Shown piece by piece: positions 3,431 through 56,947 of a stretch of DNA of 64,000 bases. Each line of letters begins with the position of its first letter. Position 1 is the first letter of the stretch. A program made the position numbers and the translations under genes. The notes under the pieces were generated by a model. That model saw only the letters and a list, made by a program, of their open reading frames with translations. It was not told the origin of the DNA and ran no database searches. The stretch lies in the IMG/VR virus record IMGVR_UViG_3300034280_000809, positions 5,343-69,342 of that record. One strand, 5' to 3'. This DNA comes from a virus.

Positions 3431-4095
3431 TCCCTATATCGAGAGAGTATTGCCATTGCAGACGCTATTTCGGGAATAGAAGAACGGGAATCTAGTCCGT
3501 TTCCCCCTAAAGTATAAGAGTAATCGCCTAATTTTTCTGATTTAATATCACCACCAATGCCTATATTTCGTTTCATATAAGATGCAACCATGCAAGTAGC
3601 AAAGATTATATCGTCAGGAACAGCAGCATAACCGTGTGTGTAAGTTACTTTAATGTTTCCATAAGGAGATCCCGTCTCAGGAGTTAGCTTGCCTGGAACA
3701 AATTCGCGTCCAAGCTCTAACCAATTGCTGTTAATACGATAAAGTATTCCACTTGAAGATGATGTTCCGTTTGTATCTAAATCTAGCATGTAATCTCTTC
3801 CAGAAGCTAATAGTTGGCTAGAACTAAAAGAGCCGGGAGATGTACCAAAGTGTCCGTTAAAGTCTTCGTAAACAGAAACAATAGATAGCACTGGGCGATG
3901 TCTTAAGATTAAGGATCGTTTTCCAGTACCTGTTAAATATTCGGTTGTAGTATTTTGTTCGAGTTTTCTTCCAAGCCAGTTTTGAACAACAGCTTCAGAA
4001 GAAATTAAGATCATGTTTAAAAAGTCATCTTGCGTAGCATCATCTGAACAGATTTTTGAAAAGGTTTTAAACTTTGAAAGAGGTACATAAGACAT
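3418..4095 (-). CDS. Head-tail connector/adaptor protein
   Basis: NIKVTYTHGY..VPDDI and SEKLGDYSYT motifs; start moved to ATG 4095 behind GGAGGT. Confidence 0.7.
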   Translation of the reverse strand: MSYVPLSKFKTFSKICSDDATQDDFLNMILISSEAVVQNWLGRKLEQNTTTEYLTGTGKRSLILRHRPVLSIVSVYEDFNGHFGTSPGSFSSSQLLASGRDYMLDLDTNGTSSSSGILYRINSNWLELGREFVPGKLTPETGSPYGNIKVTYTHGYAAVPDDIIFATCMVASYMKRNIGIGGDIKSEKLGDYSYTLGGNGLDSRSSIPEIASAMAILSRYRECAW

Positions 4096-4164
4096 AAACA
4101 AGCACCTCCAAAATAAAAGCCTGCCCTCAAATAAAAGAGCAGGCATTCATTTGTAATTAAAAAA

Positions 4165-4596
4165 TTAACTAGCAAGAGCACCATTACCGTCGCCTGCAAT
4201 CTTCTTGGAACCAAGAATCAGTACAGAAAGAGGAAGGGTAGCAGGTGAGCCACCAACGGTAGCAACAGCCCGAAGGTAACGAGCGTTCCTTAAAATCTTA
4301 CCACTGTGGGTCAAGCCAGTGATACCAGTACCAGTAGCTGAAGTTGAGGTAAGAGTAGAAAGAATTTTAAGGTCAGTCCAAGTGCTGTTGTCTGTGCTTT
4401 CTTGGATTTTAACAGCCAAGGTAGCAGAGGAAGCTGTAGTGCCTGCACCAACAATAACAATAGCGTTGACACTTCCGTCAGACAACTGCATGTCGATGGA
4501 AGAGCCTGTTACTGTGCTAGCGGGCGAGGTTACAGGAGCAATGGAGGCATCTCCAAATGCTTGCAATTTCAAATCACCAATGAAAGTAGCTGGCAT
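4165..4596 (-). CDS. Capsid decoration/cement protein
   Basis: Directly after capsid gene; IQESTDNSTWTD and RYLR motifs. Confidence 0.6.
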   Translation of the reverse strand: MPATFIGDLKLQAFGDASIAPVTSPASTVTGSSIDMQLSDGSVNAIVIVGAGTTASSATLAVKIQESTDNSTWTDLKILSTLTSTSATGTGITGLTHSGKILRNARYLRAVATVGGSPATLPLSVLILGSKKIAGDGNGALAS

Positions 4597-4667
4597 GAAT
4601 TGTTCCTTTATTTTAGATTTTAAAGATACCCAGAGAAGTTTTATTTTCTCTGGGTTATCAATACTAA

Positions 4668-6080
4668 TTACGCATTAACAAGGTTGTCACAAAGTACAAA
4701 GGATGCTTCATGGCGAGGTGCACCATCGGTGTACATAATGCCACGATACCACGTTTGGTCGGTCGTGAAAGGTGTGTCACCTTGTGTTGAAATTTGGAAC
4801 TCAATAGCTCCGCTCATCGCAACAAGGTAATCAGTAAAGTCACCACCAAGCACATAAGACAAGTTAGAAGCACTACCCTTGGTGCGAGCACCGCTGATTT
4901 GGGTAGACTTGTAAACAGGGTTTCCGTAAAGGTTGCCTGCGGTTGCTCGGCTGAAATCAATGTTAGCATTCATTTCGCGGAACATGTTAAATACAAATGG
5001 GCCTTTCTTATCACCAGCAGTAACGGCATCAGCCCTTCTGTTGGAAATTGCTGCGTACATAAGAGGACGCATTACAAAGGCTTTGAACTGAGCATTTTGT
5101 TCTTCAACTTTGCCGATCATTTGAGCAATATCTTCTGGTTCTAAAGTGTTACCGTTAGCAGCAACAGTAGAAGCAGTGTGCCTTGTGATACCAGCGTAGT
5201 TGATAAGACCCTTAGGCTCATTGCTTGAACCAGCCGCTTCAAGAAGCGACTTGTCCAATCGCAAGGCCAGAACACGACTAATGTCTTCACGCAAGAACAT
5301 CTCAACAGAGATAGAGCTAAAGCGAAATAGCTCGTTAGGTACTTTGCAAAGAATGCCAAGTTTCTTGGCCTGCAAGAGTACATCTCCGGTTTCTGGTTGA
5401 GATTCCGTGATGGCATTGGATTCGCCTACCCAGTAAGCAGTACCAGCATTGGTCTGTCTTGGGAAGGTGATTCGGCCATTGGGTGGCATGGCTATAGTTC
5501 TGGCCCCGGCTTGCATGAAAACTTCATTGTTCCTAAGGAGGTCAATAAGTTCGCCTTGAATAGGGGGAGCTACAAGCGATCCGCCTTGACCTTCATCGAT
5601 CCACGACAAAGCCTTGGTTTGACCCCAGTGTTTCTGACGAAGTGCAAATACTTCATCACGATCAACACCAGATACGCCTGCTTGAACAACTTGCTTAATC
5701 TCCCTTGCAAAACCTTCTTCACCGGGAATTTCCGCGATGTAGTCAGAGCCGAAGGGAGCCATGATTGTGTTAGTTGAAGCCTTGTTAAATCCAAGACGAT
5801 CAACATAAAGGTTTTGAAGTTTCTTTGCGGTTTCCCATTCAACCCGAGCATTCTCAGGAGAAAGTTCGCCACGAAGAAGACCAAAGAGTTTTACAAAGCT
5901 GTAGCCACGGCTAGACATAGAGTCTTCACCTTTGCGAACCGCAGGGGATGCACCGGGTAGGTTTCCTCTTGCAGATTTGCTAGTGGTTTCAATCTCTTCT
6001 AGCTTGGTTTGAAGCTTTGCCTGATTGTCTTGGATGCCTTGAATAGCGTCCAAAACTGGTTTGTTTTTTTTCTCCGCCAT
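4668..6080 (-). CDS. Major capsid protein (HK97 fold)
   Basis: GGSLVAP, AYWVGE, PKGLIN motifs; N-terminal coiled-coil delta-like domain. Confidence 0.92.
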   Translation of the reverse strand: MAEKKNKPVLDAIQGIQDNQAKLQTKLEEIETTSKSARGNLPGASPAVRKGEDSMSSRGYSFVKLFGLLRGELSPENARVEWETAKKLQNLYVDRLGFNKASTNTIMAPFGSDYIAEIPGEEGFAREIKQVVQAGVSGVDRDEVFALRQKHWGQTKALSWIDEGQGGSLVAPPIQGELIDLLRNNEVFMQAGARTIAMPPNGRITFPRQTNAGTAYWVGESNAITESQPETGDVLLQAKKLGILCKVPNELFRFSSISVEMFLREDISRVLALRLDKSLLEAAGSSNEPKGLINYAGITRHTASTVAANGNTLEPEDIAQMIGKVEEQNAQFKAFVMRPLMYAAISNRRADAVTAGDKKGPFVFNMFREMNANIDFSRATAGNLYGNPVYKSTQISGARTKGSASNLSYVLGGDFTDYLVAMSGAIEFQISTQGDTPFTTDQTWYRGIMYTDGAPRHEASFVLCDNLVNA

Positions 6081-6112
6081 GATTGGTTATTTCCTTTCGT
6101 AGATTAAACCAT

Positions 6113-6418
6113 TCAAGAAGAAACTTGCACATATTCGCCACAACTGTTTGAACTGCTAGTAGCCGGAAAATGCCCTAGTCTTCCTTGCATTTGCAATTGA
6201 AACCCAGGGTGCGAGCCAGCGATTACTGGTGGATACCTTCGGCAATCGCCCATCTCTTCAATTTGCGGAATCCCGCTAACTATTCCGACAGGCCCCGCTA
6301 ACTCTTGGGGATATTTAAACCAATGTAAACAGTTAGAACATTGGTTTTGTTTAGTCCCTACTTCTTTGCTTGCTTGTATAACAGGAAGCAAAGAAGGTGA
6401 GTTTCTTTTATCCTTCAT
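6113..6418 (-). CDS. Small Cys-rich hypothetical protein (CxxC...GDCRRYPP...CGEY)
   Basis: ORF with four Cys in metal-binding spacing. Confidence 0.5.
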   Translation of the reverse strand: MKDKRNSPSLLPVIQASKEVGTKQNQCSNCLHWFKYPQELAGPVGIVSGIPQIEEMGDCRRYPPVIAGSHPGFQLQMQGRLGHFPATSSSNSCGEYVQVSS

Positions 6419-6421
6419 GCT

Positions 6422-8245
6422 TTATTTTCTTCCTGTGAGTTCAAACAACTTCTTGTTTAAAGAATCTTGGTTGGACTTAAGAATAGTTAAAGCGTTAAGG
6501 ATAGATTTTCGTTCTTCTTCTTCTTCGTTTTTAGCTTCTTCTTCTTCTTGAGCTTTTTTGGACTTGTACATTTCGTCCACTTTTTCGTGAAGACTTTTTA
6601 AGATGTCAGTGTGAGCAATAGCACAGTCGTACATATTGTTCATTACTTCAGACATGCCTTTAAGAATTTTTGTAGTGTCTTCTTCTTCGGCATCTTTATC
6701 TTCTTCGTCTATATCTTTTTCTTCTTCATCTTCATCGCCATCTTTTTCTTCATCGTCATCAATGGCTTTGTTTTCTTCATCTTCGTCATCGACTTCTTTT
6801 TCTTCGTCTTCATCTTCTTGGTCGATGTCCTTTACTTCGTCTTCATCAGACGGTTTTTTCTTTTTCTTTTTATCTTCATCTTCATAAGCCATTAGAAGCT
6901 CCTTACTGTCAGGGAATAATTTTTTAACTTTCTTATCCTTACTGCCATTTTCTTTTTGGGAAACTACAGCAGAATCAGAATTTACGGAAGGGATTACAGA
7001 CTTTTTGTCTGAAGGTTGTTTAGGCGGAGGAATGAGAGCATCAAGGTCTTTGTCGTTTGATTTTTTATTTGGATCATAAGCCCAATTTTTAAGTGAGATA
7101 TCTCGCTTAGACCAAGGGCATTCTTTAGAAGCTGGTTTACCTTTTGGCATCTCTCTCATTCGAGAATTAAAGGCAATTGTTTTATTTGCCCATGTAATAT
7201 GTTTTTGTGTCCAAGAACTTTTTTCTGTAGAAAGCAATTCAAGATTTCTTTTTATTGGGCCAGAACTTAGAGAAGCTTTTTTTGAACAAGGATGATTGCT
7301 CCAAGCTTTTAATTCTTTGTAAGACATGTTGGTTTCTTTTTTGTATTTGAAATAAACTTCGTCAAGTTCTTCTTTATCTACAGCGTTAGAAACGATATTT
7401 TCTTTAACAACTTTTTTGGTTTCGATTGCAACAGGTTCTTGTTTTAAAGCGGTTAAGGCGGGAGCAGATACCGGAACAATTATTTTTCCTGACGGTGGAA
7501 CCCATGCAGCCAAAGCTCTGCGAACAGCGGGAGTTATTTTTTCTCCTTCAATGTGTCCGCGTCCAAGGTGAGCTGCAAGAGCTTCTTGGTTTGCAGGTAT
7601 AGGTACTACACTCCACTCGATCATATCCCATTCAAGGAACTGCATGATGGGGTGACCCATGTTTCGGAAATCTAAAACCTCATCACCTTCTGAAGTTTTT
7701 TCGCTTGTGTTATCTGTATGAATTACAGCAGCTTTTACCGGAAGAAAACCTATGGAAGCTGCTTGCAATTCTTTGCGAGCTATAAGCCGGAAGATAAGTT
7801 CTGACTCTGGTGTCTCTCCATGAAACCAAGCTGTGGATCGTATTAGTCCGTTTTCTTTGTCTACTTCCAGACAAAGATTTCCTTCCGCATCCCTTGCAGA
7901 AGCAATGGGAAGATCATCAGTACGATGTGCAAAGAAAATCCGAGGGTTGCGAGTGTAATTTTTAATGTGTGGCAGACAACCTTCGGGTTCTACGATGTCG
8001 CCATGACGATCTTTACATGAAGTTGAGACAATAAACTTTGCTGACATCTTGCTTGTATCAATTTCGGGAGCTGTATCTGACTGAGAATCCATTGCTAAAA
8101 CAGAATCATGGTTCTCTAAAGTATGCACAAGGTTTCTAGAAGCCGTAATTAAGCCACTAAAACCCATATTTTTACCTTGAGTCAGAAGAATTTCTCTTCT
8201 TTTTCGGATGAAAGATAAGATATCTGCGGTTGTATCAAGCCTCAT
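6422..8245 (-). CDS. Prohead protease fused to a DUF3140-like domain and an acidic scaffold region
   Basis: DRHGDIV, NPRIFFAH, ASIGF, EWSVVPIPAN (HK97-type protease); start moved to ATG 8245 behind AAGGAG. Confidence 0.85.
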   Translation of the reverse strand: MRLDTTADILSFIRKRREILLTQGKNMGFSGLITASRNLVHTLENHDSVLAMDSQSDTAPEIDTSKMSAKFIVSTSCKDRHGDIVEPEGCLPHIKNYTRNPRIFFAHRTDDLPIASARDAEGNLCLEVDKENGLIRSTAWFHGETPESELIFRLIARKELQAASIGFLPVKAAVIHTDNTSEKTSEGDEVLDFRNMGHPIMQFLEWDMIEWSVVPIPANQEALAAHLGRGHIEGEKITPAVRRALAAWVPPSGKIIVPVSAPALTALKQEPVAIETKKVVKENIVSNAVDKEELDEVYFKYKKETNMSYKELKAWSNHPCSKKASLSSGPIKRNLELLSTEKSSWTQKHITWANKTIAFNSRMREMPKGKPASKECPWSKRDISLKNWAYDPNKKSNDKDLDALIPPPKQPSDKKSVIPSVNSDSAVVSQKENGSKDKKVKKLFPDSKELLMAYEDEDKKKKKKPSDEDEVKDIDQEDEDEEKEVDDEDEENKAIDDDEEKDGDEDEEEKDIDEEDKDAEEEDTTKILKGMSEVMNNMYDCAIAHTDILKSLHEKVDEMYKSKKAQEEEEAKNEEEEERKSILNALTILKSNQDSLNKKLFELTGRK

Positions 8246-9746
8246 GGGATGCTCCTTGTGTGTTTTTATTGTCTGAAGGGGCTGACATTGGCTCTGGAAC
8301 AGGCAAATGTGTACCACCTACAGAGGTTGAACCTGGGTAATTTGTATCTTTAGGGGTACTATGAAGCTCTGTACTTGCTTCTATCGGAGGCCCCGAAGTC
8401 ATATTTAGCGGAACAATAGGTTGATCACCCCATTTGTCGGGGTAAGGTTCGCGTCCACGCATAAGCCTTACCTCGTTTGGTGTGATTGCTCCACACATTA
8501 AGTCTGTTTGAATCTGTCTTTCTGTAAGTTCGGGATCAAGAGGAGTAACATCTTCCCACCAAACACGAAGAGAAGGGTCATATTGTTTGGCTATTTTTTC
8601 TGTTAAGACTTGACCCATATACCTCATAAGCGGATTTATTGTCATTTGCATAAATGCAATGTAAGATGCGATAAGCGATCCATAACTACTATCTTTTGAA
8701 AGACCTACTACGCTAGACGGTACACCAAAGAGTGCAAGAATATTGTCTCTTGTTTCTGATGCAGTTTCCCCAAAGAGCATAGAGTTAATTCCTAAAGACA
8801 AAGGAGTCACTTTTGCCCCCGGAGGAACGAAGAGAGGTTTATTTGTTTTGGTTTCACCTGTGTACCTGTTGATAAATTTTGCTTCAATTCTTCTTAAAGC
8901 TTCGTCTGAAGGATCTTGATATTTGCCATCAAATTCTACAGCTACAGTAGGAAATGTTCCGTTACGATAAGCATACCATCGTGATCGATTAATCATATCC
9001 ATTGTGTCAACCCATTGATTTCCAGCGGTCAAGGGGCCAAACCCATCAATCTTTGAAATAGGTGACTTATCTTTAAAGACAGTTACTTCATCTGCGGGAA
9101 GGAATATTTTTTTGTAGATACCTTCAACTGGACGGACTTCCCATCCAATCACCGCTTGATCAACACCCGGAACAGGCCACATCCAATGAGAGGGAACAAC
9201 CCATATAGCTGTAGGCAGACCAAGAGCGTTCTTAGGAGTCCACCAATAAGCCGATCCTGTCAGCTTAAAGAACATTACAGTTTCGTACCAAAGATCGTAT
9301 GAAGTGTCAGGTTCGTTAGGATCTTTAATAAGCCGTAGTAGAGGGTGTTTGTCGGGAACAGGTTTTAAAGATTCATGGGCTAAAAGAGGAATTAAAGCTT
9401 TATTTTTAATATGACGAAATTGTTTTTGTTCGTAGGCATCATAGCTAACCCAAGAAATATTCGGAACAGTTGAAGCTATTTGTTGAGCTATAGCTCGAAT
9501 AGCAATGTAAACCCAATGCTTGTAGTTTCGCACTTGTTCAATGCGATAATCAGTCCATGAATTAATAAATGGTGTACCAGTAGGGCTAAAGCTTACAAGA
9601 CTTGATAAGTCTTTAGGATCTTTGATATCGGGGTACGGAGCAATTCCTTGCAAAGAGTTTCTATCAAGCGGTGAAGGCTTCTTGCCCCCAGGCTTTCTTG
9701 GGGATGGTCTTGGAGTTGCTGCTTTTTTTCCCGGCTGTTTTGCCAT
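8235..9746 (-). CDS. Portal protein (HK97 family)
   Basis: HPLLRLI..PN, LTGSAYW, ILALFGVP, ITPNEVR motifs. Confidence 0.92.
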   Translation of the reverse strand: MAKQPGKKAATPRPSPRKPGGKKPSPLDRNSLQGIAPYPDIKDPKDLSSLVSFSPTGTPFINSWTDYRIEQVRNYKHWVYIAIRAIAQQIASTVPNISWVSYDAYEQKQFRHIKNKALIPLLAHESLKPVPDKHPLLRLIKDPNEPDTSYDLWYETVMFFKLTGSAYWWTPKNALGLPTAIWVVPSHWMWPVPGVDQAVIGWEVRPVEGIYKKIFLPADEVTVFKDKSPISKIDGFGPLTAGNQWVDTMDMINRSRWYAYRNGTFPTVAVEFDGKYQDPSDEALRRIEAKFINRYTGETKTNKPLFVPPGAKVTPLSLGINSMLFGETASETRDNILALFGVPSSVVGLSKDSSYGSLIASYIAFMQMTINPLMRYMGQVLTEKIAKQYDPSLRVWWEDVTPLDPELTERQIQTDLMCGAITPNEVRLMRGREPYPDKWGDQPIVPLNMTSGPPIEASTELHSTPKDTNYPGSTSVGGTHLPVPEPMSAPSDNKNTQGASHEA

Positions 9747-9806
9747 AATTTTGAATCCATGTTAAGGTTGAGGCGAAAATACTAGACTAAAAAAGGAGTT
9801 TTCTCA

Positions 9807-12287
9807 ATGGCTGCACACTTTAAAAAAATAATAGATGGGATAAATAAAGAATTAACCGAAAGGTTTAAGTTTGATGACGATGAAGATGAGCCGGAAAAAA
9901 CGCTTGATTTAAATTTTATTCCTAAATTAGTTCATTCTTATCACGAGGAATTGAGAAAAAATTTAAATCGAATAACTAATTCTGTAAAAATAAACAAACC
10001 AAAATTAGATAAACCCTTAGAAGGCCTTTCAGAAAAAGAAAAAGAAAAGGTTAAATCAAAATTCTATACAGATTATCGAACAAAATTATTAGCAGAGCTT
10101 TCTAAAGAATACCCCGAAATTCGGAAAATTATAAAAGTAAATGAGCTTACATCAGCTTCTTTTGGTGTAACTGTAGGCCCATTAGTAATTAGAAAGTTTG
10201 AAAAAGAATTAAAAATTAGAGTAAAAGAAGGTTTAACTGCAAGAGGAATTAATAATGATCAAATAGAAAAAAGCGTTAATAAGAGTTTTGGTTATGAGAG
10301 TGCTTCTATTGTTGCAGCTCATTTTAACTCAGTTGCATTTAATGATGCTTATTTTGAAGGAGGTTTTGATAAAGATAGAATTAGAGAAGTTTATAAACAA
10401 ATAGGAGAAGAAAAAAAAGAAGAAAAATCAAAACCTACAAAGTATCAACAGAGTTTATTGAATATCGCAAATAATGATCCCGGTAATTGGATAATAACTT
10501 CAGGCGGGTTTTCTGGAAAAACTTTGCACGAGGTTTATGCTTACATGCTTGAAGGTGATCCAACAGCAAAAAGAGAAAACAATAAACTTTATCAAGAAAT
10601 AGAAAACAAGAAAAACCAAATTCAAAAAGGTGATCAAGTTTTAAAAACTAGAGAAACTTACATTATTAATCAAGTCAAAGCAATTACAGGTAAAACATAC
10701 ACTTACGATCAAATAAAAAACTTTTACAGTAATTTTCCTGTATCTTTACAAGCTTTAATTATCGCACAAGAAAAAAGAATAACTGCAATTACTGCTGTGC
10801 GAGATAAATATCTTCGTTTATCTGATACACAAGCAAAAACATCATTAAGGTTGAGGTCTTTACAAAACAAAGCAATGAATTGGATTTTAAACACTCACGC
10901 TACTATTTTAGCTAACCCTACTGCGGTAACTTCAAAATTTGGTAAATCTTTATCTCAAGATCAGATAAAAGGAAACAAAGCTTTTACTACTATGTTTAAA
11001 ATGTACGCTAAAAGTTTTGACACATACGCCAGAGAGTCTGGCTTAATAGCTGATGCTTTAAATCAAAGAAAAGTTTTAGCAGAAGAAGATTCTCGCGAAG
11101 ATACTCCTTTTTATACCTTAACACAATTTTATGTAGGAAGAGATGGGGTGCAAAGGAAAAAAGAAGTAATTAGATATAAAGCCCCAAGAATGAATGAAGG
11201 AGGGGGTTTTGCACCTTCAGATACTTTTGGAGGCGAAAGAGTTTATAAGAAAGGCGGTAAAAATCCTGTTGAAGCGGAGGTCAGCAAAAAACGCAGGGAG
11301 GAAGATTTTGGTTTAGGGGGAAGAAATTCTATATTGAAGGGTTTGATTCAAGGTATGAGTCCTCACGATAGAGTTAAGTTTTCTAAATTGCAAGATACCT
11401 TAAGAAATATGCCAAAACGAACAACTAAAGAATGGATAGTCGATCCCTTAACTGGCGAACAACGATTAATGCGAAAAGGATCAAAGTTGGGTTTAATGAT
11501 GGATTACGACAGGAATGGAAAGCTTGTGTGGAAAGAAATCGATATTTACGCAAAAGCTCGAAAGTCTTTAGGTGGTAGCTTGGCAAGGATTAAACAAAAA
11601 GAAATTGAAAAACAAAAACTTAATTTGTTTGTTGCAGAATCAATGTTAGAGGAAGGTTTATCGAGAGACAGAGAAGTTAAAGGTAGAGTAGCTTTTATTA
11701 CAGATGCAAAAGAAGCAGGGAGAACCGTTGCTAAAGGCGACATAAAAGGAAGGAAAGCTTTAGAAGCTAAAGAAGCTGATGAATTGCGAAGACAATTTGA
11801 TGAGGACGATGTAAAAGATTCTTCTAACTATGCTTTCGAGTTTGAAGAAAAAAGAGCAAGCTATTCTGAAAAAATAGCTAAAGCAAAAACTCATGAGGCT
11901 TTAAATAAAGCAGAAAATAAAATTTACGAAAATATGAGTAAAGGATTTCATGTCGTTGATCCTGTGTTACAAAGACAAATGATCGATGTAAGTCAGATAG
12001 AAAAATTTAGACAAGACGGAGATTTGCTTCCGGAGTTTTATACTGGGCCTACTGTTACTTTAGATATAATAAAAACTATGCGAGAGTATGGATCTCCTCA
12101 AAGTATTAAAGCTATTGAAAAGTTTCAACAAGCTCAATTAAAATATTATTCCGAAGGCGGAAAGGGTACAACCGCAACTTCATATCGGAGCGAAACTGAG
12201 TACGAATTATTAGATTATCAACTTCCTATTGCAACTCAAATACAAATCAGAAGGATGGAGTTAAACAACTCCGGCACAAAAAGCTAG
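9807..12287 (+). CDS. Large K/E-rich hypothetical protein (826 aa)
   Basis: Long ORF with AAGGAG RBS; no recognised motif. Confidence 0.7.
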   Translation: MAAHFKKIIDGINKELTERFKFDDDEDEPEKTLDLNFIPKLVHSYHEELRKNLNRITNSVKINKPKLDKPLEGLSEKEKEKVKSKFYTDYRTKLLAELSKEYPEIRKIIKVNELTSASFGVTVGPLVIRKFEKELKIRVKEGLTARGINNDQIEKSVNKSFGYESASIVAAHFNSVAFNDAYFEGGFDKDRIREVYKQIGEEKKEEKSKPTKYQQSLLNIANNDPGNWIITSGGFSGKTLHEVYAYMLEGDPTAKRENNKLYQEIENKKNQIQKGDQVLKTRETYIINQVKAITGKTYTYDQIKNFYSNFPVSLQALIIAQEKRITAITAVRDKYLRLSDTQAKTSLRLRSLQNKAMNWILNTHATILANPTAVTSKFGKSLSQDQIKGNKAFTTMFKMYAKSFDTYARESGLIADALNQRKVLAEEDSREDTPFYTLTQFYVGRDGVQRKKEVIRYKAPRMNEGGGFAPSDTFGGERVYKKGGKNPVEAEVSKKRREEDFGLGGRNSILKGLIQGMSPHDRVKFSKLQDTLRNMPKRTTKEWIVDPLTGEQRLMRKGSKLGLMMDYDRNGKLVWKEIDIYAKARKSLGGSLARIKQKEIEKQKLNLFVAESMLEEGLSRDREVKGRVAFITDAKEAGRTVAKGDIKGRKALEAKEADELRRQFDEDDVKDSSNYAFEFEEKRASYSEKIAKAKTHEALNKAENKIYENMSKGFHVVDPVLQRQMIDVSQIEKFRQDGDLLPEFYTGPTVTLDIIKTMREYGSPQSIKAIEKFQQAQLKYYSEGGKGTTATSYRSETEYELLDYQLPIATQIQIRRMELNNSGTKS

Positions 12288-12311
12288 CGAACTTTAAAAA
12301 TCAAGCTCCGT

Positions 12312-12350
12312 TAAAGAGGGGTACAGTACATATATATGTACCTTTCTTTA
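12312..12350. repeat. Nested inverted repeat including perfect 16-bp palindrome GTACATATATATGTAC (12326-12341)
   Basis: Read directly from sequence. Confidence 0.8.
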
Positions 12351-12401
12351 TATGATTTGACACCCCCCGTGGTGTGTTGACTTATACAGACTGCTAGTTT
12401 T

Positions 12402-12441
12402 CAGCCATCTCACTTTGAGGTGGCTGTTTTCGTTTAAGGAG
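12402..12441 (+). promoter_or_regulatory. Leader hairpin + U-tract + RBS, copy 1
   Basis: CAGCCATCTCA-CTT-TGAGGTGGCTG then TTTT and AAGGAG; near-identical copy at 13072. Confidence 0.7.
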
Positions 12442-12448
12442 CTTCGTT

Positions 12449-12988
12449 ATGGCTAATTTCATTTACATGATTTTCTTGATCAAGATTTCTTTCGTTATCA
12501 CTATGGTTGGTGATTTAAGTTGGAATTTCTTTTTCTTGTGTGCTGCGATGTGTGTTGCTGCTTTGAGCACTGCAATGTTGTTTGCTAGTCGTGGATACAC
12601 GCTTCTAAAAGAATGTAATGTTGCTATGACTATGTATCAACACAGCAAAAAGCAAAACGGTTATCCAATCATAACTGTATTCGCAACGATGGAAAAAGAA
12701 GTCATCATTAGCACTCACGGATGTTCAAACGGTAAGGTGCTTGGGATTTATGAAGGATGTGTTTCAATGGATGAGTTGGTTCAACAATTGATCAGTATTA
12801 AGGTTTTAACTTCTACGCAAGAAGTTAAAGTTCACTGCTGTTATCCTTCGCAAGTAAACGCAACTATCAAGAACAACAATATCAAAATGTTGTTCCCAAC
12901 CATCAATACCGTTACCTACTCTTCACATGAAGGGATATCAGGGTTTGGTCAAATGATCTTTCTTCAGAAGGTTCGTTTGTATGTGTAG
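12449..12988 (+). CDS. Membrane-anchored hypothetical protein; possible caspase-fold Cys protease
   Basis: Hydrophobic N-terminus; IISTHG and VHCC motifs. Confidence 0.45.
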   Translation: MANFIYMIFLIKISFVITMVGDLSWNFFFLCAAMCVAALSTAMLFASRGYTLLKECNVAMTMYQHSKKQNGYPIITVFATMEKEVIISTHGCSNGKVLGIYEGCVSMDELVQQLISIKVLTSTQEVKVHCCYPSQVNATIKNNNIKMLFPTINTVTYSSHEGISGFGQMIFLQKVRLYV

Positions 12989-12993
12989 GATTT

Positions 12994-13037
12994 TGATCTG
13001 ACAGGCAGACACAAAGGTTCGAGTCCTTTGCAGATCA
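12994..13037 (+). ncRNA. tRNA-like minihelix (acceptor-like stem + T-arm only)
   Basis: TGATCTG/CAGATCA stem enclosing CAAAGG-TTCGAGT-CCTTTG; no D or anticodon arm. Confidence 0.5.
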
Positions 13038-13071
13038 TTCTCTTGTTCATGTTGTTCAAGAGTTCTTTGTT

Positions 13072-13113
13072 TAGCCATGCTCGCTTTGAGTGTGGCTGTT
13101 TTTGTTTAAGGAG
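13072..13113 (+). promoter_or_regulatory. Leader hairpin + U-tract + RBS, copy 2
   Basis: TAGCCATGCTCG-CTT-TGAGTGTGGCTG then TTTTT and AAGGAG. Confidence 0.7.
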
Positions 13114-13121
13114 TTTTAGTT

Positions 13122-13307
13122 ATGGTTAATTTTATCTTTGCAATCGTTTCTTTCTTTGTTGGTGCTGATGAAACTTTCATCTCTGCAAGGGATGTTTTAA
13201 TTAGCGTGAACGGCAAAGACTCGTTCACTAGCACAATTGTATCAATCGATAGAACTACAATTCGAGTTTTGCACAACGATGAGCTAGTAATCAACATCGA
13301 AAAATAA
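13122..13307 (+). CDS. Small hypothetical protein with hydrophobic N-terminus
   Basis: AAGGAG RBS; 61-aa ORF. Confidence 0.6.
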   Translation: MVNFIFAIVSFFVGADETFISARDVLISVNGKDSFTSTIVSIDRTTIRVLHNDELVINIEK

Positions 13308-13382
13308 ACAAATGTGTTTGTTAATTCTTAAAGCCTCTGCGTGTAGCAGGGGCTTGTTTCATTTATATAGGAGATTTTTCAC

Positions 13383-15917
13383 ATGTATCTATTTTTGATT
13401 CCAAAGGCTGCAAATAAAGATAAGTCTCGAGGCTTGCGTTGCATCTCCTTGAAGAACTTTCTTCGTTCTAAAGTCAACAAGTACGAAGACTGCTGGAAAA
13501 TTGCAGTTGAATTGTTGTACACCTCTGCAAGTGTACCCAACGAAGGTGGATTTCCTTACTTGGTTAAGTGGAGTCTAGCCGGTAAAAGATGGAAACAGTA
13601 CAGTCTTTGCACAGATGCTAAGGCTACTAGCTTGGTAGAAGCTAGTGCTTTGCTGAAAAAGCAAGATGTTTTTATCTCTAACAGCAATCCTCAGATTGTT
13701 ATTAGTCTCTTTAACTTGCTAGAAAAACAGAAAGTCCTTGCTTCTGCTTGGGCCAAAGGTGTTCTTAACACCTTTACTGTGGTAGACGGATGTAAAGTAG
13801 ACTTCGACTGTACCGCCAAGAATCTCAACATCTTCCACTTCACTGGTGGCAAGGTAGAGAAACGCGGATCACAGACTGAAAGAAACTTCCTAGTAGCAGC
13901 TTGTCTGCCTGCAAGTGAAGTCAAGTTGTTCATTGCAGAATCGTCTGACTTGGATATTCCTTGTGATGGAACTATCACAATCTCAAGAGAGTTCATGCTC
14001 ATCTTGAGAAATCAGTGGGCTTTAGCAAACCCTCAGATCAAGCTAGATGATTCTATCTTGGATATCAAGACTCTAAACTTTAGAGGTTGGATACCTGGTC
14101 TTGGTCAGATCAAAGCTATGGCTATTGTTACAGACAAAGTTTTGCCACAAGGAGCAAACATCTATGTTCATCGCAAGAACATCAAAGATGAAGTTGTGGT
14201 AAAAGGTGATGTAGCTTTCTTCGGTTACGATCCGCAGGGAGCAAAGCCTTCTGCTTATACCAACAAGCAGTGTCTTAGAAACTTTGGCTGGTTCTTTGGT
14301 CTTAAGACTAGGGTCTGGTCATGGTTTAATTCTACGCTCAAGAAAGGTATTGTAGACATCAAGTCTGGCAAGACACCGGAAGAATCTAAGCACGAGCTTC
14401 AGATGCTCAAGGTAGAGAAGCGGATCAAGGATTCCTTTTCGACGGGTGAAAGACTTCGCTCCATTACTTGGAACGAGTGCGGTGGTTCGCAGGCAGAGTT
14501 GCCAGCTTTGTATCAAGGAAGTTGCAAGGACTGGTTGCGTAGGATGGCGACTGAAGATGTTGACGAGCAAGAAATTTGGGTAGAAATACCCGGCTCGTAC
14601 TTCTCTCAGATCGTTTGTCTAGAAGCAGTACGCTATGTAGCTCCTCAGCTATACAGCAAAGGTATTGATGACGGCAAGGTTGTCTATCTCAAGAGCCACG
14701 ATATGTTTGTAGTATCTACCAAGTATTGGCTAGACAATCTTGTCAATTGGGGTGGTTGTGATCAGGATGATAAGTTCGCTCTTATCTTCCGAAAGCACAA
14801 GGTTACTGAAAGGATTGTAGCTTTGATCTATCGTACACCAAATGATAGGAATGAGTATGCAATCGCTGAGGCTTTCGAAGATAACCTTCCACAGTTGAAA
14901 GGCGATTGGAAGTCTGAGCCTTGCAGCTTCCCAGCAGATAGGCCTCTTCAAGCATCTGCTTCTGATGAAGAAGTTGTTGCTCTTCCTAAGGCTGTTAAGG
15001 CCAAAGAAGAATCTAGAGGCTTCAGTCACTTCTTGGCTAAGTTGGAAGTCTCTGCTAATCCTGGTTGGGCAGTAAACATAATTGCCTGCTGGAACACAGG
15101 CTATGCTAACCGCTGCCCTCTACCAACGATGGAGCAATGTATTGATCTTGCAACTCAGACTTGCGATCCAGTGCTTATCAAATGGTTGGAAGACAAGTGT
15201 CTAGAGATTGTCAAGATGATGCACTACGATCTTCTGAACAAGACAATTACGCTAGACAGAAAGCTAGCCTTGAGTGTGTTCGGAGTAGCGGGTAGCTATG
15301 ACGAAGAGTTCAAGGAGTTGATTAAGATAACTCGTAAGACTGTAAAATTCCTTACAGTTGATAGCGACTACAGCAAGCTATGTCGTGCCGCTTCTGAACG
15401 GATTCAGAAAGAGCTAGACTGGTTTGATACTGTTGCTGACGAGTTAAGTTTGGAAGCTTGGAAGCGTAAGCTGCCTAAGCTACAAAGGATTGTTGCAAAG
15501 ATCCGCAAAGACTTCGGAGAAAGCTTTTACTCTACTATGGTTGACAGGATTAATCTTACCTTCTCAAGGTGGGCTTCCTGTTACAGCGATGACGATGTAA
15601 ATCTGTTTCGCTGGACACCTAAAGGAGAGCTGCCAAAACTTTCTTCAATGGGGTTTGATCTTGTACTAAGAAAGCAGAAAGTTCTGCTCTTAGAACAAAG
15701 AAAGTATGTATGGAAAAAGTTCCCTAAGAACTACTCCAAAGAAACTTTTGATCAGATTCTTTGCTTTGTTGCTCTCCATCAACTGTTTAGTCAAGCTAAT
15801 CCTGACTACGCAAAGCCAATCAAGAACCTTGAGATACACAAGGGTCTTGAGAAAGGCAACTTGATCAGTCACAAATGGCTGTTCGAATCCTTCTGTAAGG
15901 TTAGAAACCAGATGTAA
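13383..15917 (+). CDS. Putative single-subunit two-barrel (YonO/RdRP-like) RNA polymerase
   Basis: DGTITIS...LNFR...IKA...IYVHRKNIK; GGCDQDD at aa 457-463; YRTP around aa 484; AGGAG RBS. Confidence 0.55.
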   Translation: MYLFLIPKAANKDKSRGLRCISLKNFLRSKVNKYEDCWKIAVELLYTSASVPNEGGFPYLVKWSLAGKRWKQYSLCTDAKATSLVEASALLKKQDVFISNSNPQIVISLFNLLEKQKVLASAWAKGVLNTFTVVDGCKVDFDCTAKNLNIFHFTGGKVEKRGSQTERNFLVAACLPASEVKLFIAESSDLDIPCDGTITISREFMLILRNQWALANPQIKLDDSILDIKTLNFRGWIPGLGQIKAMAIVTDKVLPQGANIYVHRKNIKDEVVVKGDVAFFGYDPQGAKPSAYTNKQCLRNFGWFFGLKTRVWSWFNSTLKKGIVDIKSGKTPEESKHELQMLKVEKRIKDSFSTGERLRSITWNECGGSQAELPALYQGSCKDWLRRMATEDVDEQEIWVEIPGSYFSQIVCLEAVRYVAPQLYSKGIDDGKVVYLKSHDMFVVSTKYWLDNLVNWGGCDQDDKFALIFRKHKVTERIVALIYRTPNDRNEYAIAEAFEDNLPQLKGDWKSEPCSFPADRPLQASASDEEVVALPKAVKAKEESRGFSHFLAKLEVSANPGWAVNIIACWNTGYANRCPLPTMEQCIDLATQTCDPVLIKWLEDKCLEIVKMMHYDLLNKTITLDRKLALSVFGVAGSYDEEFKELIKITRKTVKFLTVDSDYSKLCRAASERIQKELDWFDTVADELSLEAWKRKLPKLQRIVAKIRKDFGESFYSTMVDRINLTFSRWASCYSDDDVNLFRWTPKGELPKLSSMGFDLVLRKQKVLLLEQRKYVWKKFPKNYSKETFDQILCFVALHQLFSQANPDYAKPIKNLEIHKGLEKGNLISHKWLFESFCKVRNQM

Positions 15918-23637: not shown

Positions 23638-23922
23638 ATGACCACTTATTGTAAATTGCGTAGCGGTGAATGGGGTATCAAGGGCGAGGGATTAGAAGAA
23701 GGAAAAGTTGTAGAAGTAACTACCAAGGCAGGTGTTACTAAGAAGGTGCAAGTAGGAAAGGTAATCTTTACCAAAGATGCTTTTAGTATTGCAGCTATCT
23801 CCAAGCCTTCCGCACCGAAAGAAGAGGAACTAAAAAACTGTTGGGAGTGCGGATGCAAGTTCAGTAAAGACGATTGCTTTAGAAGAGATGGTGATTGGAA
23901 CGAGGGGTACTGTGGATGCTAA
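23638..23922 (+). CDS. Hypothetical protein with C-terminal Zn-finger-like CxxC
   Basis: KLRSGEWGI motif; CWECG...C...CGC. Confidence 0.55.
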   Translation: MTTYCKLRSGEWGIKGEGLEEGKVVEVTTKAGVTKKVQVGKVIFTKDAFSIAAISKPSAPKEEELKNCWECGCKFSKDDCFRRDGDWNEGYCGC

Positions 23923-24821
23923 AAATAGTAGACATGTTTGCCGGAGCTGGCGGCTTCAGCACAGGTGCAGTTCAAGCAGGGTGTGAAGTTGTGTGGGCAG
24001 CAAACCATTGGAAGGATGCAGTGCATGTACATGAGTGCAACCACCCAAAGACTTTCCATAGTTGTCAAGACTTACAACAAGCAGACTTCACAACGCTTCC
24101 TAAGTACGATGTTTTATTAGCTAGTCCTTCTTGCCAAGGACATAGTAAAGCAAGAGGAGTAGACAAACCGCGACATGACTCAGCCCGAAGTACAGCTTGG
24201 GCAGTAGTGGCTTGCGTTGAAGCTACAGAGCCTAAGGCTTTTGTAGTTGAGAATGTAACTGAGTTTATTACATGGACTCTTTACCCTCAGTGGAAGAGTT
24301 GCATGGAGAGCTTAGGTTATAAAGTTGCTGTTAATGTTTTGAACGCAGCAGACTTTGGTGTTGCTCAGTCTAGGGTTAGAGTGTTCATAACAGGATCTAA
24401 AACAAAACCTCTTAGTGTTAATGTGAATCCTTTTAAAACTCCTATTCCCTTTAAGAACTTAATAGAACCTGGGCAATACAAATGGTCGCCTGTCTCAGAG
24501 AAGGCAGAGAGCACTAAACGAAAATGGACTAATGGTAAGAAAGATTTTGGTAATGATTTCTTGATTGCTTACTACGGGTCAGAGAGAGGTGGAAGAAGTA
24601 TTAGCAAACCTATCGGAACGATTACTACCAAAGAAAAGTTTGCTCTTATCAATGGCGACAAGATGCGAATGCTTTCTTTGAGTGAATACAAAAACGCTAT
24701 GGGATTTCCTAAAGACTATCTGTTGCCTAAGAGCAAGAGCCTTGCGTTACACATGCTAGGTAATGCAGTATGTCCGCCAGTAGCAAAAGAAATACTAACT
24801 CAGTTAAAGGAGTGCATTTAA
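23916..24821 (+). CDS. DNA (cytosine-5) methyltransferase
   Basis: Motifs I (FAGAGG), IV (SPSCQGHS), VI (ENV), VIII (QSRVRVF), X (GNAV). Confidence 0.92.
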   Translation: MLKIVDMFAGAGGFSTGAVQAGCEVVWAANHWKDAVHVHECNHPKTFHSCQDLQQADFTTLPKYDVLLASPSCQGHSKARGVDKPRHDSARSTAWAVVACVEATEPKAFVVENVTEFITWTLYPQWKSCMESLGYKVAVNVLNAADFGVAQSRVRVFITGSKTKPLSVNVNPFKTPIPFKNLIEPGQYKWSPVSEKAESTKRKWTNGKKDFGNDFLIAYYGSERGGRSISKPIGTITTKEKFALINGDKMRMLSLSEYKNAMGFPKDYLLPKSKSLALHMLGNAVCPPVAKEILTQLKECI

Positions 24822-30265: not shown

Positions 30266-30462
30266 TCCCGAAATCTGTTTCGTGATCATCAAGCAAAGCC
30301 TATTTCTATAGGGGTTTGCCATGCGATAAACTAATCTATTACTAACATCTTTATAAATTAGTAGTTGGTGGTTTGGGTAATCTGCTGCTATGCTTGCAAT
30401 CAGATTGAACTGTGATAGTCTGGATAAGTCTTGTAGATTCAAACTCTTTTAATGGAGTGTCT

Positions 30463-31725
30463 ATGTCTTCGTCCATCGCCCACGGTTCAGTAGCAGTGCT
30501 TGATGTTGAAACAACAGGGTTGCATCCTAAGGGTGGCAATCGAATAGTTGAAATTGCTATAGTAGTTATTGGCTCAAACGGTGTTGTTGAAAAAGAATTT
30601 GTTTCTTTAGTAAACCCAAACCGTGATGTAGGGCCTACAAAAATTCACAATATATACGCTTCTGATATTATCAATGCTCCTAAGTTTGAAGACATTGCCG
30701 GACATATACTTGAAGCATTGCAGGGGTGTGTTGCTATTGTTGGGCATAATGTTAGGTTTGATAAAGGCTTTTTAAGACATGAGTTTGAAAGGATTGAGGT
30801 TGAGCTTCCAGAATACTTTAGCTTATGCACCATGTACCTCTCAGGAGGGGGTAAGCTTTTTGATTGTTGCGAAAGGTTTGGTGTTGATGTTGGCGATGTA
30901 CAACATGAGGCTTTAGTTGATGCAAGGTTTACAGCTAAACTTTTTACTCTTTCACTGCCAGGTAATGAAGAAGAACTAGATGAGTTGTTATCTTCAAAAC
31001 CTATTGACTGGCCTACCGTTACAAAAACAAATGCTGTTCTTCTTACACGACAAGAAGCTGAGTTTAAAAAGAGCGAACCACCACCGTACTTGGAAAAGCT
31101 TTTAAAGCGTACTCACGAAAATGCTTCTGATTTAAAGTTTACAGAAGCCCAAATTAATTACATTGATATGCTTGATCGTGCTTTGGAGGATCGTATTGTA
31201 GATGAGGCCGAAGCAAAAGCTTTGTTTGAAACAGCTATTGAATGGGGCTTATCGGGAAAACAAATATTAGATATACACGAAAACTATTTAATAAAAATTG
31301 TAACAATTGCAATGGAAGATGGAATCATATCTGACTTTGAAATGCAAGACTTATTAATGGTTGCAACCTTGCTAGGCAAAAAAGAAGTCGATGTTATAAA
31401 TATTATTAATAAAAACAAAGTTTCTCCTATGAAAAAAGATAACCTTCCTTCAAAATCTATTGAAGACTTTAAAGGTAAGAAGGTTTGTTTTACTGGTGAA
31501 TTGTTTTGCTCTATCGATGGAGTTCCTATCAGCAGAAAAAAAGCACAGGAGTTATCTATCGAAGCAGGGCTAGAAGTATTAGAAAGAGTTACTAAAGAGC
31601 TAGAAATCTTGGTGGTTGCTGACCCTAATACGCTTTCCGGCAAAGCGAAGAAAGCTAAAATATACGGTGTAAGAATCCTGCATGAAAATGTTTTCTGGAA
31701 AACTCTTGGCATTAAGGTGGACTAA
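30463..31725 (+). CDS. DEDDh 3'-5' exonuclease (DnaQ-like) with helical TerB-like middle and C-terminal BRCT domain
   Basis: DVETTG, HNVRFD, HEALVDA; GKKVCFTG...KAKKAK.YGV. Confidence 0.85.
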   Translation: MSSSIAHGSVAVLDVETTGLHPKGGNRIVEIAIVVIGSNGVVEKEFVSLVNPNRDVGPTKIHNIYASDIINAPKFEDIAGHILEALQGCVAIVGHNVRFDKGFLRHEFERIEVELPEYFSLCTMYLSGGGKLFDCCERFGVDVGDVQHEALVDARFTAKLFTLSLPGNEEELDELLSSKPIDWPTVTKTNAVLLTRQEAEFKKSEPPPYLEKLLKRTHENASDLKFTEAQINYIDMLDRALEDRIVDEAEAKALFETAIEWGLSGKQILDIHENYLIKIVTIAMEDGIISDFEMQDLLMVATLLGKKEVDVINIINKNKVSPMKKDNLPSKSIEDFKGKKVCFTGELFCSIDGVPISRKKAQELSIEAGLEVLERVTKELEILVVADPNTLSGKAKKAKIYGVRILHENVFWKTLGIKVD

Positions 31726-35129: not shown

Positions 35130-36623
35130 TTAAAACCATCCGTCGTTATCGTCAGTTCCAAATTGAAATTCTTTTTTCCCTGAGCTTCGTATTAATTTTA
35201 ATACTCCCATAGAAAGAGCAAAGGCTCTATCGTCATGGTGTTTACCCATGTGATCAAAACGAATTCCATTTGAGGACTGACGAATAACTAAGTTTAATAT
35301 TTCTTTTTCAAGAGTATCTTCTTCTCCGTTTTCTAAAAGAACTAAACCGCAACCTCTGTACCACTTTACAGTTGATTGAACTATTGCGTTTCGAAGAGCC
35401 ACACATAATTCTTGGTTACCTTTTCCTGACCTGAATTCAAATTTCTCCATAGGAAGGTAATCTCGAAACTTTTGATATAAGCCTTCAAGATTCCACGGGT
35501 CAATTACTATTGATGAAAAATCAAAGAGTGTTCTGTAGGTGTCAATCCATTCTTCTATTTGAGAAACTCGAACAGGGTTTTCTCTTGAGCCTTGAAGCAC
35601 ATCCATTCGGTCTACAATCATATGTTCGGTTAAAGGATCTTTGTGCATAATACACAAGACTGTTCTATCTCTTGTTGCACCGTAATCTATTGTTCCAATG
35701 TAAGAGGAGTCAGGGTTTCCTTTTGGTTGTAAAGTCAAATCAAAATCAATACATCGCTCTACTTCTTCTTGAGTTGCAAACTCACCTGCTATAGAAGAAG
35801 ACACCCATTTGTTATCGTAGAGTCTGGCTGCTACTGAAGGAGGAAGAACCTTCCTCATATCATCTTGATCTTCTTTATTAATCCACGAAGCAAGTTTTCC
35901 GGGCGATTGGTATATCCACCAGTTGTTTGATGTCTTAAATTTTTCTAAGGCATGGTGTTGCCAAGAATTTAAAACGCCTGCGTTAGTAGTAATAAGAAAA
36001 GTTGAGTTGGGGATTTTAGTTCGTGATGTAAGGATAGAATGAAAGAGTTCTGCACCTCGTTCTGGCCAGTGTGTTACTTCATCGCAGATTAATATATCAG
36101 GTCGAAGACCGTGGGAAGAAGCCGCGTCAGCCGACAGGATTTCAAAACAAGATGAGTGCTTACCGTAAAGCCTATAGTTTTGAATCTCAACATGCTTCTG
36201 AAGCCAAGGGTTTAGTTCTAATTCTCTTTCAGCACTTGAACGAATAAGGGCTGCTTGATCACGATCTGCTGCAAAAGCGTAGCCAAGAATCTGTCGTTGA
36301 GAAAACGCAAGCGACCAAGTTACAATTGAACCAAGCATACCAGTCTTGTTGTGGCCTTTAGGTAGGACGATAGCAGAAGACATAGGGCCTTTGTAGTCTT
36401 GGTTTACACCTGCTGTTTTTTCAAACATAGGAGCAAGGCGACTATAAAGAGTCCATTGCCAAGGTTCTGCTACAGACCTAAAAGGTTTTGAGTCTGGTTT
36501 AGAATCAATAACTATATGGTTCATGTAGTTTTGAAACGATTGACAAGAGGCTGCTTCGGCAAGAAGGTATACGGATTGCAGCTTTCGCTTCATCTCTGAA
36601 GTGGATAAGTCATTGTCCATCAA
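35130..36623 (-). CDS. terL: Terminase large subunit
   Basis: PKGHNKT Walker A, ILICDE Walker B, TTNAG, IDYG..RD and HDD nuclease motifs. Confidence 0.88.
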   Translation of the reverse strand: MMDNDLSTSEMKRKLQSVYLLAEAASCQSFQNYMNHIVIDSKPDSKPFRSVAEPWQWTLYSRLAPMFEKTAGVNQDYKGPMSSAIVLPKGHNKTGMLGSIVTWSLAFSQRQILGYAFAADRDQAALIRSSAERELELNPWLQKHVEIQNYRLYGKHSSCFEILSADAASSHGLRPDILICDEVTHWPERGAELFHSILTSRTKIPNSTFLITTNAGVLNSWQHHALEKFKTSNNWWIYQSPGKLASWINKEDQDDMRKVLPPSVAARLYDNKWVSSSIAGEFATQEEVERCIDFDLTLQPKGNPDSSYIGTIDYGATRDRTVLCIMHKDPLTEHMIVDRMDVLQGSRENPVRVSQIEEWIDTYRTLFDFSSIVIDPWNLEGLYQKFRDYLPMEKFEFRSGKGNQELCVALRNAIVQSTVKWYRGCGLVLLENGEEDTLEKEILNLVIRQSSNGIRFDHMGKHHDDRAFALSMGVLKLIRSSGKKEFQFGTDDNDGWF

Positions 36624-56926: not shown

Positions 56927-56947
56927 TTAATTCAAGGCAAAGTATTT

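Follow-up and report, generated by a model that had tools for sequence, protein, structure and literature searches.

A candidate single-subunit two-barrel-like RNA polymerase of uncultured freshwater phages, with a DxDD loop and Arg-x-Pro behind it

Two-barrel RNA polymerases (RNAPs) are generally given an origin older than the last common ancestor, and the DxDxD and Arg-x-Pro (R-x-P) motifs of these enzymes, in fixed order, have been treated as invariant (Ruprich-Robert and Thuriaux, PMC2919709). As summarized in that survey, all of these enzymes share eight invariant residues, with one Asp and two basic residues contributed by one barrel and the R-x-P and DxDxD motifs by the other; the set comprises D709, R738, K743, R962, P964, D1007, D1009, and D1011 in QDE-1, and Rpb2 D837, K979, and K987 together with Rpb1 R446, P448, D479, D481, and D483 in RNAP II. 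Among phage enzymes, YonO of Bacillus phage SPbeta is described as a single-subunit two-barrel DNA-dependent RNAP (PMC5467207), and according to the P23-45 preprint (10.1101/2022.12.01.518664), such families generally show no significant similarity outside the metal loop. Here we describe a phage protein family that resembles these enzymes in its conserved residues and departs from them in the order and spacing of its motifs. Its reference member, P0001, is the 844-amino-acid (aa) product of an open reading frame (ORF) in the IMG/VR virus record IMGVR_UViG_3300034280_000809 (69,342 bases). The window, that is, the whole stretch of DNA analyzed, comprises the 64,000 nucleotides (nt) at positions 5343–69342 of that record; positions given below are those of the window unless another locus is named.

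Residue signature and extent of the family

Judged from its pattern of conserved residues, P0001 is somewhat likely to be a single-subunit two-barrel-like phage RNAP from an unannotated clade, with a DxDD loop and Arg-x-Pro behind it. Conservation was assessed in an alignment of 71 sequences whose identity to P0001 reaches down to 17% (A2), in a 52-sequence subset (A3), and in 17 distinct proteins encoded by the viral loci, a set that overlaps A2. The columns K160, G196, K244, D460, D462, D463, R484, P486, and D588 are invariant (71/71) in A2, and R161, D195, K268, P284, P403, G457, G458, G561, and E584 are retained in at least 90% of its sequences (G457 in 70/71, G458 in 68/71, and P403 in 66/71). 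R234 and N266 reach at least 90% in A3, and every one of the 17 viral-locus members keeps K160, D195, R234, K244, K268, the three Asp, R484, P486, E584, and D588. The family consensus reads K..KR, (L)DG...IS, N.R...P..G..KG...V, H..N.K.E, PQ..K....TN.Q, and V.IP.....Q..S in its earlier part, followed by (N)HGG.D.DD.F, R.PN..GEY, NPG...N, and ME..ID..TQ. On the evidence of these alignments, the conservation of the Asp, Arg, and Lys residues is far beyond chance.

In the 69-kb record, the GG.D.DD loop is the one motif of the Asp-loop type. Its invariant Asp residues are spaced D460-x-D462-D463 in all 71 members, the second and third Asp being adjacent, and the Arg-x-Pro motif follows the loop in all 71 as well, 18–29 residues beyond D460. 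Ahead of the loop, P403 is kept within the motif V-x-I-P403; no Arg is conserved there, and two positions before P403 the residue varies (P in 29, E in 15, K in 9, and R in 9 of the 71 members). An initial annotation, made from the sequence, had read this ORF as a YonO- or QDE-1-type polymerase in which the Gly of DxDGD was missing and Arg-x-Pro stood behind the catalytic loop. The loss of the Gly extends to every aligned member, and, as the Asp loop precedes Arg-x-Pro throughout A2, the unusual order noticed there was correct and is a family trait. The annotation had also tied its reading to conservation of the Asp residues among homologs, and D460, D462, and D463 are each present in 71/71.

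The motif strings quoted in that annotation are likewise real, and all occur in the translation of the ORF: CDGTITISREF (aa 194–204), LNFRGWIPGLGQIKAMAIV (aa 231–249), IYVHRKNIK (aa 260–268), VEIPGS (aa 400–405), IDDGKVVY (aa 428–435), GGCDQDDKF (aa 457–465), and LIYRTPN (aa 481–487, with the R484 codon beginning at nt 14832). The interval 14751–14771 assigned to GGCDQDDKF spans GGCDQDD only. As features of the family, the Asp loop, Arg-x-Pro, and K244 hold throughout, whereas IDDGKVVY is kept among close relatives only.

An exhaustive search of representatives recovered 66 relatives of P0001 at E ≤ 1e-3, 31 at E ≤ 1e-10, and 7 at E ≤ 1e-30. Most are 700–1200 aa long, with similarity limited to approximately aa 150–610; ten close relatives measure 831–854 aa and are 41–97% identical to P0001. 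Two scans of IMG/VR yielded 2 + 21 = 23 viral loci encoding relatives, on contigs of 18–206 kb. Among 185,579 species genomes, a single Flavobacteriales metagenome-assembled genome (MAG) gave matches, on two contigs, one of them 94,700 bp in size, as is one IMG/VR phage contig. The family therefore looks phage-restricted.

All cluster members that bear a name are labeled "hypothetical protein." Scans of P0001 returned nothing above noise from Pfam (best Chitin_synth_1, E 0.13) or PHROGs (best E 0.19) and nothing from NCBIfam or PADLOC, with PADLOC also returning nothing for two other members. There was no match by tblastn in 50,697 phage records and no usable match in the ESM Atlas with either full-length P0001 or aa 140–620. 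The clade was previously unannotated, and no paper describing it was found in a literature search outside which fell the supplementary RNAP-family alignments (23 families; PMC2919709 and the P23-45 preprint). The earlier suggestion of a possibly undescribed RNAP clade is borne out as far as the missing annotation and description are concerned; as an RNAP, the clade is a candidate.

Two members among the 71 aligned and 17 viral-locus proteins carry a C-terminal RecD/PIF1-like superfamily 1 (SF1) helicase. One is the 2082-aa protein of locus L011 (Table 1), in which AAA_30 matches aa 1605–1812 at E 2.1e-22 and PADLOC returns RecD-type matches. The second belongs to A3 and, to judge from a long tail after D588, would be the 1533-aa P0068. 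A search for further longer, fused relatives found none.

Comparison with two-barrel enzymes and the predicted structure

P0001 and YonO are both phage-encoded single chains, of 844 and 839 aa, respectively, and both contain DG, R..KG, a later Lys, an Asp triad, and R-x-P, together with later motifs of the N/I-G-x-x-S/x-N and ..ID.A.. types that were matched largely by eye. A wider comparison set comprised YonO (from the SPBc2 record) and nine YonO-like phage proteins 23–50% identical to it. All ten rows show DG.G, R..KG, S..K, R-S/x-P, and the Asp loop in sequence, with R-x-P first in 10/10; two of the ORFs end at or just past the Asp loop, and the full-length rows go on with I-G-x-I-S/T...N and ..ID.AK. 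A Gly ahead of the Asp loop is found both in the P0001 family (HGGxDxDD) and in 6/10 YonO-like rows (G-[ACS]-D-x-D...). The two groups differ in that YonO has DNDGD with RSP ahead of it, whereas the P0001 family has DxDD with R-x-P behind; in addition, the gap between Arg and Lys of the basic motif is 9 residues in P0001 and 4 in YonO.

In kind, the family has a counterpart for each of the eight invariant residues. The Asp and the two basic residues of the first barrel are matched in the sequence by D195 and by R234, K244, and K268, with D195 as the putative counterpart of QDE-1 D709 and Rpb2 D837. QDE-1 (PF05183; PDB 2J7N) thus agrees with the P0001 family in all eight kinds of catalytic residue; however, its R962-x-P964 stands ahead of 1007-DYDGD-1011, whereas in the P0001 family the Asp loop comes first and lacks the Gly. 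Archaeal PolD DP2 offers a precedent for a deviating acidic motif (NxDGD) and for a change of substrate on the two-barrel fold. In the PolD study (PMC7708050), the Arg of RxPxLH is described as hydrogen-bonding the ribonucleotide, and the DNA polymerase PolD has PHT in its place; PolD is further set apart by being multi-subunit and archaeal, while the P0001 family keeps an invariant Arg-x-Pro.

The phage enzymes crAss gp66 and P23-45 gp96 are also nearly devoid of sequence similarity to cellular RNAPs beyond the metal loop, and it was through their structures that they were recognized (10.1101/2022.12.01.518664; 10.1101/2020.03.07.982082). These enzymes differ from the P0001 family in having DxDxD (DFDxD in crAss-like phages) where it has DxDD, and in belonging to giant virion proteins; neither was matched when the PDB was searched with sequences of the P0001 family. 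As with the crAss-type enzymes, a Bacteroidota host is possible, given that a relative's contig was binned with the Flavobacteriales MAG, though this is a weak hint only.

An AlphaFold2 model of P0001, computed with A2 as input, has a mean predicted local distance difference test score (pLDDT) of 91.2 and a predicted template modeling score (pTM) of 0.90. By DSSP, the model consists of an N-terminal alpha/beta part, a beta-rich module, about 90 residues of helices (295–388), a second beta-rich module, and a mostly helical C-terminal third. The first module contains strands 150–153, 171–176, 182–185, 197–201, 230–237, 241–250, 260–263, 271–273, and 277–284, and D195, R234, K244, and K268 all lie inside it (aa ~150–284). 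The second contains strands 405–412, 432–436, 441–444, 464–472, 478–484, and 493–497 and helices 413–416, 421–426, and 446–451. In the model, GGCDQDD occupies the loop that joins helix 446–451 to strand 464–472. In beta-prime, the DxDGD loop likewise lies between a helix and a strand.

The second module has six strands and two helical segments, which is the element count given for a double-psi barrel in the P23-45 preprint (10.1101/2022.12.01.518664), and in the proposed reading both modules would be double-psi barrels. By our own reading of the model, however, the order of elements in the second module (S-a-S-S-a-S-S-S) is neither that of a canonical double-psi barrel nor a simple circular shift of it. 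The canonical R-x-P position may survive as x-I-P403 with its Arg lost, which would amount to relocation of the Arg and not to a permuted barrel. Hypothetically, x-I-P403 and strand 405–412 may then represent the canonical R-x-P strand and the strand that follows, strands 432–444 the hairpin before the second helix, and 464–472 the strand after the metal loop, with an extra hairpin strand, 478–484, that might return the relocated Arg to the active site.

Two other motif assignments were considered and dropped. A reverse-transcriptase-like YxDD (palm motif C) was set aside because the DxDD of P0001 is placed by the model in a helix-to-strand loop and not in a beta-hairpin, and a ligase or capping KxDG was set aside because no conserved Lys stands ahead of DG.

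Proposed function and competing explanations

We therefore treat the family as a variant that probably works like a two-barrel enzyme; because both the DxDxD spacing and the motif order differ from the standard pattern, it is not filed as a canonical member of the superfamily. In the proposed mechanism, P0001 would be a single-chain nucleotide polymerase acting like the group of YonO, QDE-1, and crAss gp66. The first module (aa ~150–290) would supply D195, R234, K244, and K268, and the second (aa ~398–497) the metal-binding D460, D462, and D463 together with R484, held by P486; R484 would be the counterpart of the Arg that contacts the ribose of the incoming nucleoside triphosphate (NTP) in known enzymes. 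These residues are expected to meet in one active site, with NTP as the probable substrate and DNA as the probable template. Retention of the R-x-P Arg fits the use of NTPs, since that Arg contacts the ribonucleotide in the PolD study. The job of the enzyme would most likely be DNA-dependent RNA synthesis, by which a portion of the phage genome would be transcribed without the host RNAP. Because neither a T7-like RNAP nor a beta-prime domain was detected in six family-bearing records, the family would be the only RNAP candidate of these phages, if they have an RNAP of their own. The beta-prime search (PF00623) found none in 6/6 records (3 complete) and its control matched 14/14 genomes; the search for T7-like RNAP (PF00940), negative in P0001 and in the same 6/6 records, is a weak one, its control having matched 0/14 control genomes.

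Several results weigh against a two-barrel polymerase acting in transcription. Full-length profile–profile comparison of A2 by hhalign gave probabilities of 0.7% with YonO alone, 0.2% with 22 YonO relatives, and 0.5% with 29 more diverse YonO-like sequences, and pieces covering the second module reached at most 1.2%. PF05183 had no match in P0001, in 52 scanned members, or in a six-frame translation of the genome (the control matched B. subtilis), and polymerase Pfam families matched 0/52 scanned members. PDB sequence searches with P0001 (best E 2.3), A2, A6 (aa 395–620), and A7 (aa 140–300) returned chance-level rows only. The family has DxDD in place of the canonical DxDxD, and its R-x-P is not N-terminal to the Asp loop. 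A promoter search found no exact k-mer in more than 3 intergenic regions, and the best 9-mer, allowing one mismatch, occurred in 8/47 upstream regions as compared with shuffle maxima of 5–9. Finally, fusions to RecD/PIF1-like helicases are more typical of primases than of transcriptases.

It is therefore the residue signature and local motifs, and not a significant alignment, that would connect the family to two-barrel enzymes. The likeness to the YonO and QDE-1 signature proposed in the initial annotation is supported at the level of single residues: Asp-Gly, R..K(G), a second Lys, an Asp triad after GG, and R-x-P. This leaves room for an unrelated Mg-dependent enzyme, such as a nucleotidyltransferase or nuclease, with RNAP-like residues acquired by convergence. 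Such an origin would account for the missing statistical link to any two-barrel family, for the break with the canonical pattern in both Asp spacing and motif order, and for the unusual element order read from the model of the second module; moreover, combinations of Mg, Asp, Arg, and Lys are noted to occur in unrelated polymerases too (PMC2919709). Nevertheless, five motifs match those of YonO-like proteins in kind, four of them in order and with similar spacing. The best hhalign piece (aa 185–300 of the first module against the YonO-like piece), though below significance (probability 20.6%, E 1.1e-3), sets DG on DG and R..KG on R..KG. The low-scoring second-module comparison (probability 1.2%) pairs RxPN..GEY with RSPH..REH, NPG...N with IGxISN, and ME..ID with ..IDxAK. 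The layout of a beta module, helical connector, beta module, and helical tail within approximately 800 aa is also that of YonO-size enzymes, and we judge convergence on an unrelated fold to be improbable.

A two-barrel-type polymerase might instead serve outside transcription, as a replicative primase making short RNA primers on single-stranded DNA in association with a helicase or, less likely, as an RNA-dependent RNA polymerase or a PolD-like DNA polymerase. The fold is reported to support DNA synthesis in PolD (PMC7708050) and RNA-templated synthesis in QDE-1 (PMC9508822), and two family members carry the helicase domain described above. In the complete 113-kb record encoding the 2082-aa fusion, PolA is present, whereas searches with two Pfam models (DnaG_N and Prim-Pol) and one protein (the primase-helicase of the window) detected no primase. 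This fusion and the undetected primase leave some likelihood to a function in priming, at least where a helicase is fused. However, the window phage and a second genome (G001) already have a primase-helicase and PolA and yet keep the family gene, the fused forms are only 2 among the 71 aligned and 17 viral-locus members, and the invariant Arg of R-x-P fits NTPs and not deoxynucleoside triphosphates. We accordingly regard these other roles, taken together, as unlikely. Equally doubtful is a more far-reaching proposal, by which the family would form a new architectural class, its R-x-P strand moved to a hairpin behind a metal loop shortened to DxDD, with the helicase-fused forms acting as the replicative primase in some phages.

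That P0001 is a structural or otherwise non-catalytic protein, for instance an ejected or virion protein whose charged residues serve binding only, is very improbable. The gene does lie near the portal and capsid block and after a large K/E-rich protein. However, it is divergent from the structural block with many small ORFs behind it, and invariance of three clustered Asp, Arg-x-Pro, and several Lys at approximately 17–25% identity is the pattern of an active site. Our preferred reading is still the single-subunit RNAP.

Genomic setting and implications

The window belongs to a tailed phage (Table 1). It is present in 24 freshwater or lake DNA sequencing runs dated 2016–2025, with no RNA run among the sequencing runs that carry it, and no cultured phage in a 50,697-record collection has a DNA polymerase more than ~26% identical to that of the window.

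Table 1. Positions of P0001, its sequence features, and neighboring or related genes (window coordinates unless a locus is named)
Feature	Coordinates	Strand	Remarks
P0001 ORF, candidate single-subunit two-barrel-like polymerase	13383..15917	+	844 aa, ATG start
First beta-rich module, candidate barrel with basic residues and one Asp	13830..14252	+	aa 150–290; DSSP on AlphaFold2 model
D195-G196, candidate second-metal Asp	13965..13970	+	G196 invariant, D195 at least 90% (A2); D kept 17/17
R234...K244, basic motif R..K(G)	14082..14114	+	K244 71/71, R234 at least 90% (A3); consensus NxRxxxPxxGxxKG
K268 in HxxNxKxE, second conserved Lys	14184..14186	+	Invariant in A3 (52), at least 90% in A2, 17/17 viral-locus members
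Second beta-rich module with Asp loop and R-x-P	14574..14873	+	aa 398–497; DSSP on AlphaFold2 model
GGCDQDD (G457-D463), candidate metal-binding loop	14751..14771	+	DxDD, not DxDGD; three Asp 71/71
R484-T-P486, only invariant Arg-x-Pro	14832..14840	+	71/71; end of strand 478–484
NPGxxxN and MExxID motifs, helical region past second module	15057..15146	+	aa 559–588; G561, E584 at least 90%, D588 invariant
Three strongest hairpins	12402-12426, 13072-13098, 13331-13355	+	After each upstream gene, the last directly before the family gene
Terminator-like hairpin directly upstream of P0001	13331..13355	+	Followed by GTTTCATTTA and GGAG; stem kept in L001, loop differs
Major capsid protein	4668-6080	-	
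Prohead protease-like protein	6422-8317	-	631 aa
Portal	8235-9746	-	
P0012, K/E-rich protein	9807-12287	+	826 aa; no family match
DNA methyltransferase	23895-24821		
Exonuclease-like protein	30412-31725		
Terminase large subunit	35130-36623	-	
Family A DNA polymerase (PolA)	40825-42975	-	
Primase-helicase	42977-45577	-	
L011 family member	6003-12251 (L011)	+	2082 aa; ~500-aa N-terminal extension, core ~aa 540–1054, RecD/PIF1-like SF1 helicase ~aa 1605–2078
L010 family member	7215-10532 (L010)	+	1105 aa; weak C-terminal NADAR-like match, E 3.4e-5, 24.6 bits vs 35.1-bit cut-off
PcfJ-like protein	3842-5656 (L020)	+	604–653 aa, E 2.9e-11; likewise in L021–L023; few genes upstream of family gene

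The window and nine related loci share a layout of portal on the minus strand, a divergent large protein of 637–1028 aa, the family gene, and a run of small ORFs, with a protein of ~152–181 aa between the large protein and the family gene in 8/10 loci. The large proteins follow the portal in all nine related loci, and BLAST does not link all of them. In distant loci, the family gene stands amid small ORFs and near a RecA or PcfJ-like gene; RecA lies upstream of it in L012, L013, L016, and L017. PHROG and Pfam scans of the conserved neighbors (the 826-aa, 179-aa, and 573-aa proteins and clusters c3–c24) were blank save for RecA, PcfJ-like, weak NADAR, and helicase matches. PolA, PolB, DnaG_N, and Prim-Pol had no match in G004 (202 kb) and G005 (206 kb), the complete records holding L020 and L024.

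Terminator-like hairpins are enriched in the sequence (17, vs. 5.7 ± 2.5 in shuffles), and a scan for sigma-70-like promoters found 14 (vs. 16.1 ± 3.8 in shuffles). Three similar plus-strand units (12402–12448, 13072–13121, and 13331–13382) each precede one of three successive genes, and each is built of a GC-rich hairpin, TTTyGTTTA/GTTTCATTTA, GGAG, and a start codon. In L001, neither the middle unit nor the 61-aa ORF at 13122–13307 is present. The non-coding stretch 12288–12448, between the 826-aa and 179-aa genes, contains the palindrome GGTACAGTACATATATATGTACC, a C-run, and a terminator-like hairpin, and is near base-for-base identical in L001, the polymerase-like proteins of the two being 69% identical. 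This stretch may have a regulatory function or encode a small RNA; an Rfam search of 12200–13450 returned a chance-level small nucleolar RNA row only.

Elsewhere in the window, a 353-nt intergenic region holds two pairs of 12-nt direct repeats (TAGGTAACCCAT-like) at 56591–56639 and 56887–56935, approximately 290 nt apart, which are iteron- or operator-like. A long acidic low-complexity run, GAA/GAT-rich on its coding strand (repeat family D1, 6510–6847, minus strand), lies inside the prohead-protease-like gene.

If the proposed identity of P0001 is true, the two-barrel active site would tolerate more rearrangement of spacing and order than has been assumed, and a deep branch would be added to the single-subunit clade of YonO, QDE-1, crAss gp66, and P23-45 gp64/gp96. 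At approximately 95 kDa, the protein would offer a compact enzyme for the study of promoter use, template choice, and fidelity. Should the helicase-fused forms prime replication, they would represent the first two-barrel primase. For the phages themselves, it would mean that many uncultured freshwater phages, with genomes of 45–206 kb, rely for transcription or priming on an enzyme wholly overlooked by current annotation pipelines.

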